Positions 17,534-18,417 of a DNA stretch of 64,000 bases are shown here, piece after piece (the first letter of the stretch is position 1; each line of letters begins with the position of its first letter). Position numbers and translations under genes: made by a program. The notes beneath the pieces were generated by a model that did not search any database, had not been told where the DNA came from, and saw only the letters and a program-made list of their open reading frames with translations. The stretch lies in NCBI RefSeq assembly GCF_988243305.1, contig NZ_OZ547136.1; one strand, written 5' to 3'.

Positions 17534-17610
17534 GCGCCCTTAGCTCAGTTGGATAGAGCAACGACCTTCTAAGTCGTGGGCCGCAGGTTCGAATCCTGCA
17601 GGGCGCGCCA
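17534..17610 (+). tRNA. argU: tRNA-Arg (anticodon UCU), 77 nt with encoded CCA
   Basis: Cloverleaf GCGCCCTTAGCTCAGTTGGATAGAGCAACGACCTTCTAAGTCGTGGGCCGCAGGTTCGAATCCTGCAGGGCGCGCCA; anticodon loop CT-TCT-AA. Confidence 0.95.
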
Positions 17611-17655
17611 TTTCTTCTTCATTTATCCCCGTCTTATCCGTTTCCGCTTTGCCCT

Positions 17656-18417
17656 TCACCACATCACTTTTTGTCGCTGTTTGGCGAGATAATTCAACGG
17701 TGTCAGGCCGTAAAACGCCTTAAAAACAGAGATAAAGTACGACGTGCTGCTATAGCCACATAATTGCGCTACCTGAGTGATATTTTTGTTATCCATCAAT
17801 AACATCTGTACGGCGTAACGCATACGACACTCTGTGACAATCTGGCTATAGCTGGTATTTTCGTTTTTTAATTTCTTTTTGAGCAGGCTGGGGCTTAAGC
17901 ATAGCGAACTGGCGACAATTCGCAGATTCCAGTAATGCTGAATATCGCTTTGAATAATGCGGCAGACGCTGTCGCGGACGCTGCTGCGTAAGATATACAT
18001 CAGTAGGGCAATAAACCGCGATTGCTCAAGAAAGTTAGACAATACGGTAAAAAGCAATGCGCGCGTCAACTCCGCTTCGCAGGGTTTGCTGGGTTGCTGC
18101 TTGCTGTGGTTGGCGGCTAGCCGGAACACTTCCGGTGTACGGCTATGACAAGCGATAACCGGGGTAGCCAGCCGCGACCAGGGCTTTACGCAGGTTAAGT
18201 TCTTATTTAAAAACAACAGATAATCGTTGATGATGTTGCGGTTGATGTGGGTGATTAATACGTGATTTAACGTTGAGAGTTCAATGACGTTATTGTTGCA
18301 CGCGAAGGCGGCCAGGTAATTTTTCGGAAGGGTAAACGTGGCATGGTTATTGACGCTTACCTCTACCTCTTTTTCGGTCAGGATCACCACGCAAGGTTCA
18401 CTGCTGCTCAATTGCAT
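17656..18417 (-). CDS. envY: AraC-family transcriptional regulator, 253 aa
   Basis: C-terminal AraC-type HTH; N-terminus MQLSSSEPCVVILTEKEVEV matches my recollection of EnvY; followed by ybcH-nfrA-nfrB. Confidence 0.75.
   Translation of the reverse strand: MQLSSSEPCVVILTEKEVEVSVNNHATFTLPKNYLAAFACNNNVIELSTLNHVLITHINRNIINDYLLFLNKNLTCVKPWSRLATPVIACHSRTPEVFRLAANHSKQQPSKPCEAELTRALLFTVLSNFLEQSRFIALLMYILRSSVRDSVCRIIQSDIQHYWNLRIVASSLCLSPSLLKKKLKNENTSYSQIVTECRMRYAVQMLLMDNKNITQVAQLCGYSSTSYFISVFKAFYGLTPLNYLAKQRQKVMW

Follow-up and report, generated by a model that had tools for sequence, protein, structure and literature searches.

We found that the segment joining argU to envY in the stretch of DNA analysed here (64,000 bp; hereafter, the window) is, with high confidence, an intact and unoccupied attB of the argU-specific, DLP12-type lambdoid phages. 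The segment combines an intact argU, a core shared with the phages, both bacterial arms, and a single copy of that core without phage genes. We describe the anatomy of this site and of its attP, attL and attR counterparts, the absence of phage DNA from it, and its frequency in the E. coli population. The features at and around the site are, from left to right:

16660..17292, minus strand: fimZ, a LuxR-type fimbrial regulator, the core gene to the left of the site (open reading frame and annotation of NZ_CP148331.1)
17475..17502, plus strand: promoter-like site of argU, near the sigma-70 consensus (TTGACT, 16-nt spacer, TATAAT; 11 of 12 positions match)
17534..17610, plus strand: argU, tRNA-Arg(UCU), intact (ARAGORN, anticodon TCT; Rfam RF00005, 72 bits)
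17566..17612, plus strand: attB core (O), 47 bp; starts in the anticodon loop and covers the rest of the tRNA, plus TT
17611..17655, no strand: argU-envY spacer (B' arm), 45 bp, bacterial sequence, 43 of 45 positions identical to the K-12 attR side
17656..18417, minus strand: envY, AraC-family regulator of 253 aa, intact (open reading frame; 99.6% amino acid identity to K-12 EnvY)
18600..22463, minus strand: ybcH and nfrA, both intact (open reading frames and annotation of NZ_CP148331.1)

The sole tRNA gene found by ARAGORN in the 64-kb window is that for tRNA-Arg, and it is 100% identical to K-12 argU; ARAGORN and Rfam placed it at the same position, in agreement with the coordinates, and the end at 17610, of the original prediction. 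The promoter-like site upstream is invariant among the window, K-12 and a B2 strain and, judging from its motifs, probably functions as the promoter of argU. On the other side, the triplet tca at 17656-17658, read directly from the sequence, is the TGA stop of envY on the minus strand, and the gap at 17611..17655 was counted exactly, so that the predicted distance of 45 bp between argU and the envY stop at 17656 holds. The open reading frame at 17656..18417 is labelled envY in the collinear E. coli genome NZ_CP148331.1, and its product carries AraC-type HTH domains (HTH_AraC and HTH_18). Since the spacer matches the K-12 stretch from the attR core to the envY stop at all but two positions (2 SNPs), it represents the B' arm and not a phage remnant; that is, the 45-bp junction holds bacterial sequence of the K-12 arm beyond attR and no remnant of a prophage. 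The 45-bp spacer was also searched for functional elements, including terminator-like features and repeats, with none found.

All 64 kb of the window are collinear with NZ_CP148331.1, in which only core genes are annotated across the matching interval, in the following order:

Left side: fdrA-ylbE-ylbF-ybcF, purK-purE, lpxH, ppiB, cysS, folD
Centre: sfm/fim-like fimbrial operon, fimZ, tRNA-Arg, then envY, ybcH, nfrA, nfrB
Right side: cusSR, cusCFBA, pheP and onwards to the ent/fep cluster

In the NZ_CP148331.1 locus (L002), fimZ lies at 19261..19893, i.e., at the window coordinate plus 2601, and the intact ybcH and nfrA of the window show that it has no flanking deletion of the BL21 type. The closest of the 5426 complete RefSeq E. 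coli genomes share 98.6-98.9% identity with the window over 24-64 kb, and hence the source lineage is without a close member in the complete-genome set. The 1.1-kb argU-envY junction, unlike the wider window, is 100% identical to NZ_CP148331.1; the identity of the window to the complete genomes is, in these comparisons, a mosaic. Elsewhere in the window, a tandem duplication of ~500 bp (~38980..39980, copies ~97% identical) contains two hokE-type toxin loci, both of which are also annotated in the collinear NZ_CP148331.1.

The earlier reading, according to which no integrase, phage gene, appY or ompT lies near argU, was borne out by blastn and tblastn searches of the 64-kb window. Specifically, the 21-kb interior of K-12 DLP12 had no blastn match in the window (E<=1e-3), the K-12 proteins IntD, EmrE, YbcK, QuuD, RrrD, NohD, TfaD, BorD, RusA and OmpT gave zero tblastn matches, homologues of lysis, Q, terminase and tail-fibre-assembly genes were not found in it, and the sole window match of K-12 AppY was its AraC-family relative EnvY. 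The last 25 nt of the tRNA, searched with up to 3 mismatches, occur in the window only in the tRNA itself, and an attR-like partial copy of argU is absent from the window; the direct repeat of the tRNA 3' end that had been suggested as a check of the junction was thus not present, consistent with an empty site. With no IntD homologue and no second core (at up to 3 mismatches), the presence of a DLP12 prophage or of its remnant was ruled out.

For K-12, the original prediction placed DLP12 with appY and ompT in the argU-envY interval, and the annotation of MG1655 agrees. In that genome, argU (564723..564799) is directly followed by intD, and the record gives a 'cryptic prophage DLP12' at 564755..586056 that includes intD, appY and ompT, with envY next at 586147. 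Consequently, envY does not stand directly beside argU in the reference; the two are separated by the 21.3 kb of DLP12, with a 47-bp direct repeat on both sides. A 45-nt core, CTTCTAAG...GCGCGCCA, is present in two exact copies in K-12, within argU and beside envY (1256-1300 and 22558-22602 of the K-12 locus, L001), and together with the following TT it makes up the 47-bp repeat, matching the published length (PMC6379469). In the junction alignment, the window and the K-12 attL are identical up to and through the core, and the window as a whole reads as the left arm of the K-12 attL joined to the right arm of the K-12 attR, continuing into envY.

The same argU 3' core was found in 17 phage records, 14 of them from Escherichia and three from Salmonella. 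In phage 2G7b (NC_049954), it has ompT, an omptin gene, on one side and a 1164-bp integrase gene on the other. In phage Kati (PP925833), a 1164-bp integrase gene again adjoins the core, and the opposite side carries, going towards the core, a 750-bp transcriptional regulator gene and then a 954-bp gene, which correspond in size and order to appY and ompT; the integrase next to the core is 387 aa long in both phages. All 47 bp of the core are identical in the window (17566..17612), the K-12 attL, the K-12 attR and the attP of phages 2G7b and Kati, and the expectation that the junction would yield the attB sequence was therefore realized. The Kati record annotates its attP core, a partial argU copy, as 'tRNA-Pro' (L010, PP925833.1, 2462..2545), which is probably a mis-annotated attachment site. 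Based on a five-way alignment, in which the arms correspond base for base, the window, 2G7b/Kati and K-12 constitute a complete Campbell-model set:

attB, in the window: B-O-B'
attP, in phages 2G7b and Kati: P-O-P'
attL, in K-12: B-O-P'
attR, in K-12: P-O-B'

Tyrosine-integrase recombination at cores within tRNA genes is established for lambdoid phages, and by analogy recombination at the argU core would proceed by the same chemistry. In the argU-specific phages, the attP core reproduces the 3' portion of argU (anticodon loop through CCA-proximal end, plus TT) and is positioned between the morons appY/ompT and the gene of the 387-aa tyrosine integrase. Under such a model, an integrase crossover inside this core would place the phage genome between argU and envY; argU would be made complete at attL by the 3' portion that the phage brings, and the original chromosomal 3' portion would end up beside envY as the 47-bp partial tRNA copy (attR), i.e., the K-12 layout. 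Since ompT and appY are cargo adjacent to attP, they would come to lie next to envY after integration. In the window, this insertion has either never occurred or been exactly reversed.

Compared with the DLP12 site of K-12, the window has the same tRNA gene, the same 47-bp core, the same fimZ and argU promoter on the left, and the same right flank (45-bp spacer, envY, ybcH and nfrA), but K-12 holds 21.3 kb where the window shows B-O-B' with one core and no phage genes. Phages 2G7b, Kati, ev243, Turner, the PhiR series, and the Salmonella phages SEN22 and BIS08P22 have an identical or nearly identical core of 47-53 bp, and in an attP of the 2G7b/Kati type the core stands beside the 387-aa integrase with ompT (in Kati, together with the appY-like regulator) on the other side. 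The phage attP (P-O-P') is, however, the partner site, with arms unrelated to those of the window. The window and Shigella/EIEC, whose lack of ompT/DLP12 belongs to the antivirulence 'black hole' concept, are alike in having no ompT-bearing prophage at the argU locus, but the window is free of the IS load and gene decay of Shigella over its 64 kb; with no IS element and no gene decay, a Shigella origin was set aside by inference. E. coli B/BL21 likewise shows loss of ompT at the argU region, although in BL21 the envY side of the junction is missing as the result of a non-site-specific deletion, whereas the attB of the window is base-perfect.

To assess how common this configuration is, we took as query 1000 bp with the tRNA 3' end at the midpoint, counted contiguous matches of at least 80% coverage, and found the empty junction in 2512 of the 5426 complete RefSeq E. 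coli genomes (~46%), including O104:H4, O157:H7 and 042. K-12-like genomes match this query in two separate places, and BL21-type genomes match only its left half. An earlier query of 1101 bp, 81% of which was on the envY side, matched 4091 genomes at 80% coverage or more and was discarded as not diagnostic of the empty site. Previously, the argU location of DLP12 and its 47-bp attR have been described, together with its occurrence in 74% of 638 genomes, and strains without DLP12 have been used to deduce the ancestral argU locus (PMC6379469); appY has been reported as carried on DLP12 (PMC10057817). The polymorphism in argU occupancy, the 47-bp repeat, and ompT-less E. coli and Shigella are thus already documented (PMC6379469, PMC5723341, PMC10057817), and, given also the frequency found here, an empty argU site is ordinary and already known.

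K-12-type ompT was detectable in 3095 of the 5426 complete E. coli genomes. Its co-occurrence with the empty site was assessed on complete genomes with a chimeric query (the junction plus K-12 ompT), and in an evenly spaced sample of 27 empty-site chromosomes ompT was absent from 23. The other four, three O157:H7 and cattle strain 138 (H105-H108), have a K-12-like ompT elsewhere on the chromosome, and hence an empty argU does not always mean an ompT-negative genome.

Another ~1100 genomes match only argU and the 183 bp upstream of it, at 90-95% identity. In the one that was examined, NCTC9022 (NZ_LR134237.1, locus L004, 14800..18750; 94% over argU and the 183 bp), folD abuts argU, with no sfm operon and no fimZ, and argU is followed by an integrase pseudogene, a tail-fibre-assembly (tfa) remnant, a methyltransferase gene, ompT, and a decayed attR (18512-18557, 3 mismatches in 46), after which only ~70 bp remain of the envY 3' end, followed by ybcH. 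To judge from this gene content, NCTC9022 has lost envY and still has its ompT, which sits in what is left of a heavily eroded prophage of the DLP12 type.

Beyond E. coli, the exact empty junction had no match among GTDB species-representative genomes. A second scan of the species representatives, anchored on the argU promoter plus the tRNA, recovered two other Escherichia species and two apparently contaminated assemblies, and in 4 of 4 cases argU is followed by IntD-homologous sequence; in MOD1-EC7003 the IntD-type remnant is short, and in E1V33 the contig stops after ~30 residues. An outgroup with an empty argU-envY junction was therefore not recovered from the species-representative scans, which appear uninformative as to an 'ancestral' state or slightly unfavourable to it. 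The DLP12-type remnants at argU in the B2 strain and in the two Escherichia species indicate that occupation of the site is old in the genus, and consequently that the empty alleles of some lineages could be secondary.

In Escherichia sp. MOD1-EC7003 (L007, NZ_PTRE01000002.1, 770..2916), argU and a ~55-aa remnant of a DLP12-type integrase C-terminus are followed by genes for the type III effectors NleB (PF24688, E=1e-161) and NleE (PF20798, E=5e-101), and the argU site is, by its domain content, an effector islet in a non-coli Escherichia species. The two remaining assemblies are a 'Segatella copri' MAG contig (L005, JAJXBQ010000410.1) and a 'Streptomyces triticisoli' scaffold (L008, NZ_QFDQ01000134.1). 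Each has an E. coli argU with an adjacent intD-like integrase gene, L008 is 99.6% identical to the window on the upstream side of argU, and both assemblies appear to be contaminated with E. coli DNA.

Much closer relatives are available, since the exact 990-aa NfrA of the window is present in many assemblies. The relatives sharing this NfrA were drawn from 24 of 525 index blocks, and those that bear on the state of the site are:

GCA_966572395.1 (L017): 1 mismatch in 21 kb to the window; argU empty, as in 16 similar places
GCA_974490465.1 (L020): 5 SNPs in 14.9 kb of right flank to the window; argU occupied
GCA_974490345.1 (L021): 6 SNPs in 14.9 kb of right flank to the window; argU occupied

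L017 is also without ~62 bp at window ~11326..11389, in the gene of a fimA/sfmA-like major subunit, for which 157 aa are called in this genome vs. 180 aa in other relatives. In the two occupied relatives, the match to the window stops at 17563, the left edge of the core region, and both are lysogenised at exactly the window's core. Far from being a DLP12-like stump, the L020 prophage has a complete lambda-type tail module (tail tube through tape measure, then M, L, K, I, J, lom, side tail fibre and tfa), followed by methyltransferase and ompT genes, and the viable phage Kati covers 90% of 17.9 kb of it at 96.6% identity. In the 8 kb of L021 that were read, J and the genes for tail fibre and tail-fibre assembly are present, and the 2.5-kb arm of Kati is 99.5-100% identical to the ompT-bearing prophage ends of the relatives. 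Between L020 and L021, the flanks show 5 SNPs in 14.9 kb (~0.03%), vs. 0.9% for their prophage ends over the first 4.7 kb and 3-9%, with rearrangement, for the tail-fibre region; appY is present in only one of the two.

The original prediction had offered an ancestral empty site or a clean deletion. The empty site, with its base-perfect junction, stands, but the choice between the two is not settled by the junction: Int/Xis excision within an identical core is scarless, and thus the junction alone cannot separate a site that was never occupied from one that was precisely excised. The relatives are more telling in this respect. Divergence between the L020 and L021 prophages greatly exceeds that between the flanks, which is most simply accounted for by separate integrations and mildly favours an originally empty, ancestral site, although one integration followed by recombination with other lambdoid phages could also have produced this divergence. 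On these grounds we lean, modestly, towards the window showing the pre-integration state. A less likely but still live alternative is that the site was once occupied by a prophage of the DLP12/Kati type and that precise Int/Xis excision restored attB and removed ompT and appY. The sequence is fully compatible with such a history, given that excision at the 47-bp core leaves no scar; further, the relatives at 5-6 SNPs in 14.9 kb hold prophages with intact-looking tail genes, argU remnants are phylogenetically widespread (the B2 strain with a decayed attR and the two other Escherichia species), and DLP12 has been reported to excise in K-12 (PMC4632033). The same open question has been raised for Shigella and EIEC, from which ompT and DLP12 are absent and where it was described as 'unclear' whether they were never present or were excised (PMC5723341). 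However, the clearly different prophages within near-identical flanks of the two lysogenic relatives have a simpler explanation in separate integrations, the nearest genome (L017) and the 16 similar places are empty, and no positive trace of earlier occupancy was seen. The intact prophages of the sister genomes could equally be cured, and a more specific version, somewhat less probable still, is a very recent and precise curing of the Kati-like, ompT-carrying prophage that the sisters at ~0.03% flank divergence still hold; if true, it would represent a natural, scarless loss of the OmpT protease inside one clonal group, comparable to the lack of ompT in Shigella/EIEC.

Two further explanations would not involve site-specific excision at all. 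The empty allele might have been imported by homologous recombination of the fimZ-argU-envY flanks, replacing an occupied allele, and the mosaic nature of the window, with 100% identity over the 1.1-kb junction vs. 98.6-98.9% over the surrounding 24-64 kb (NZ_CP148331.1), would fit such an event. Nonetheless, the flanks of L017 and of L020/L021 are near-identical to the window over 15-23 kb, with no window-specific recombination patch, and we regard import as improbable. An illegitimate or IS-mediated deletion in the style of E. coli B/BL21, or an assembly collapse, could also have removed a prophage, and the left-half matches of BL21-type genomes show that non-site-specific deletions do occur at this locus. 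Yet both arms are complete to the base, envY, ybcH and nfrA are intact, there is no IS, and the identical junction is found in 2512 independently finished genomes, all of which makes the probability of this explanation close to nil; a BL21-type deletion scar in particular was rejected, as there is no flank loss and no IS at the junction, which is a base-exact B-O-B'.

In conclusion, the empty argU site, which we tend to view as the pre-integration state, has little significance beyond annotation. Nevertheless, the window, the K-12 junctions and the two isolated phages together provide a clean teaching example of attB, attP, attL and attR. Finally, since no phage DNA is present at argU, the strain does not have, at their usual location, the ompT and appY genes that phages carry, and lambdoid phages with ompT should be able to lysogenise it at argU.
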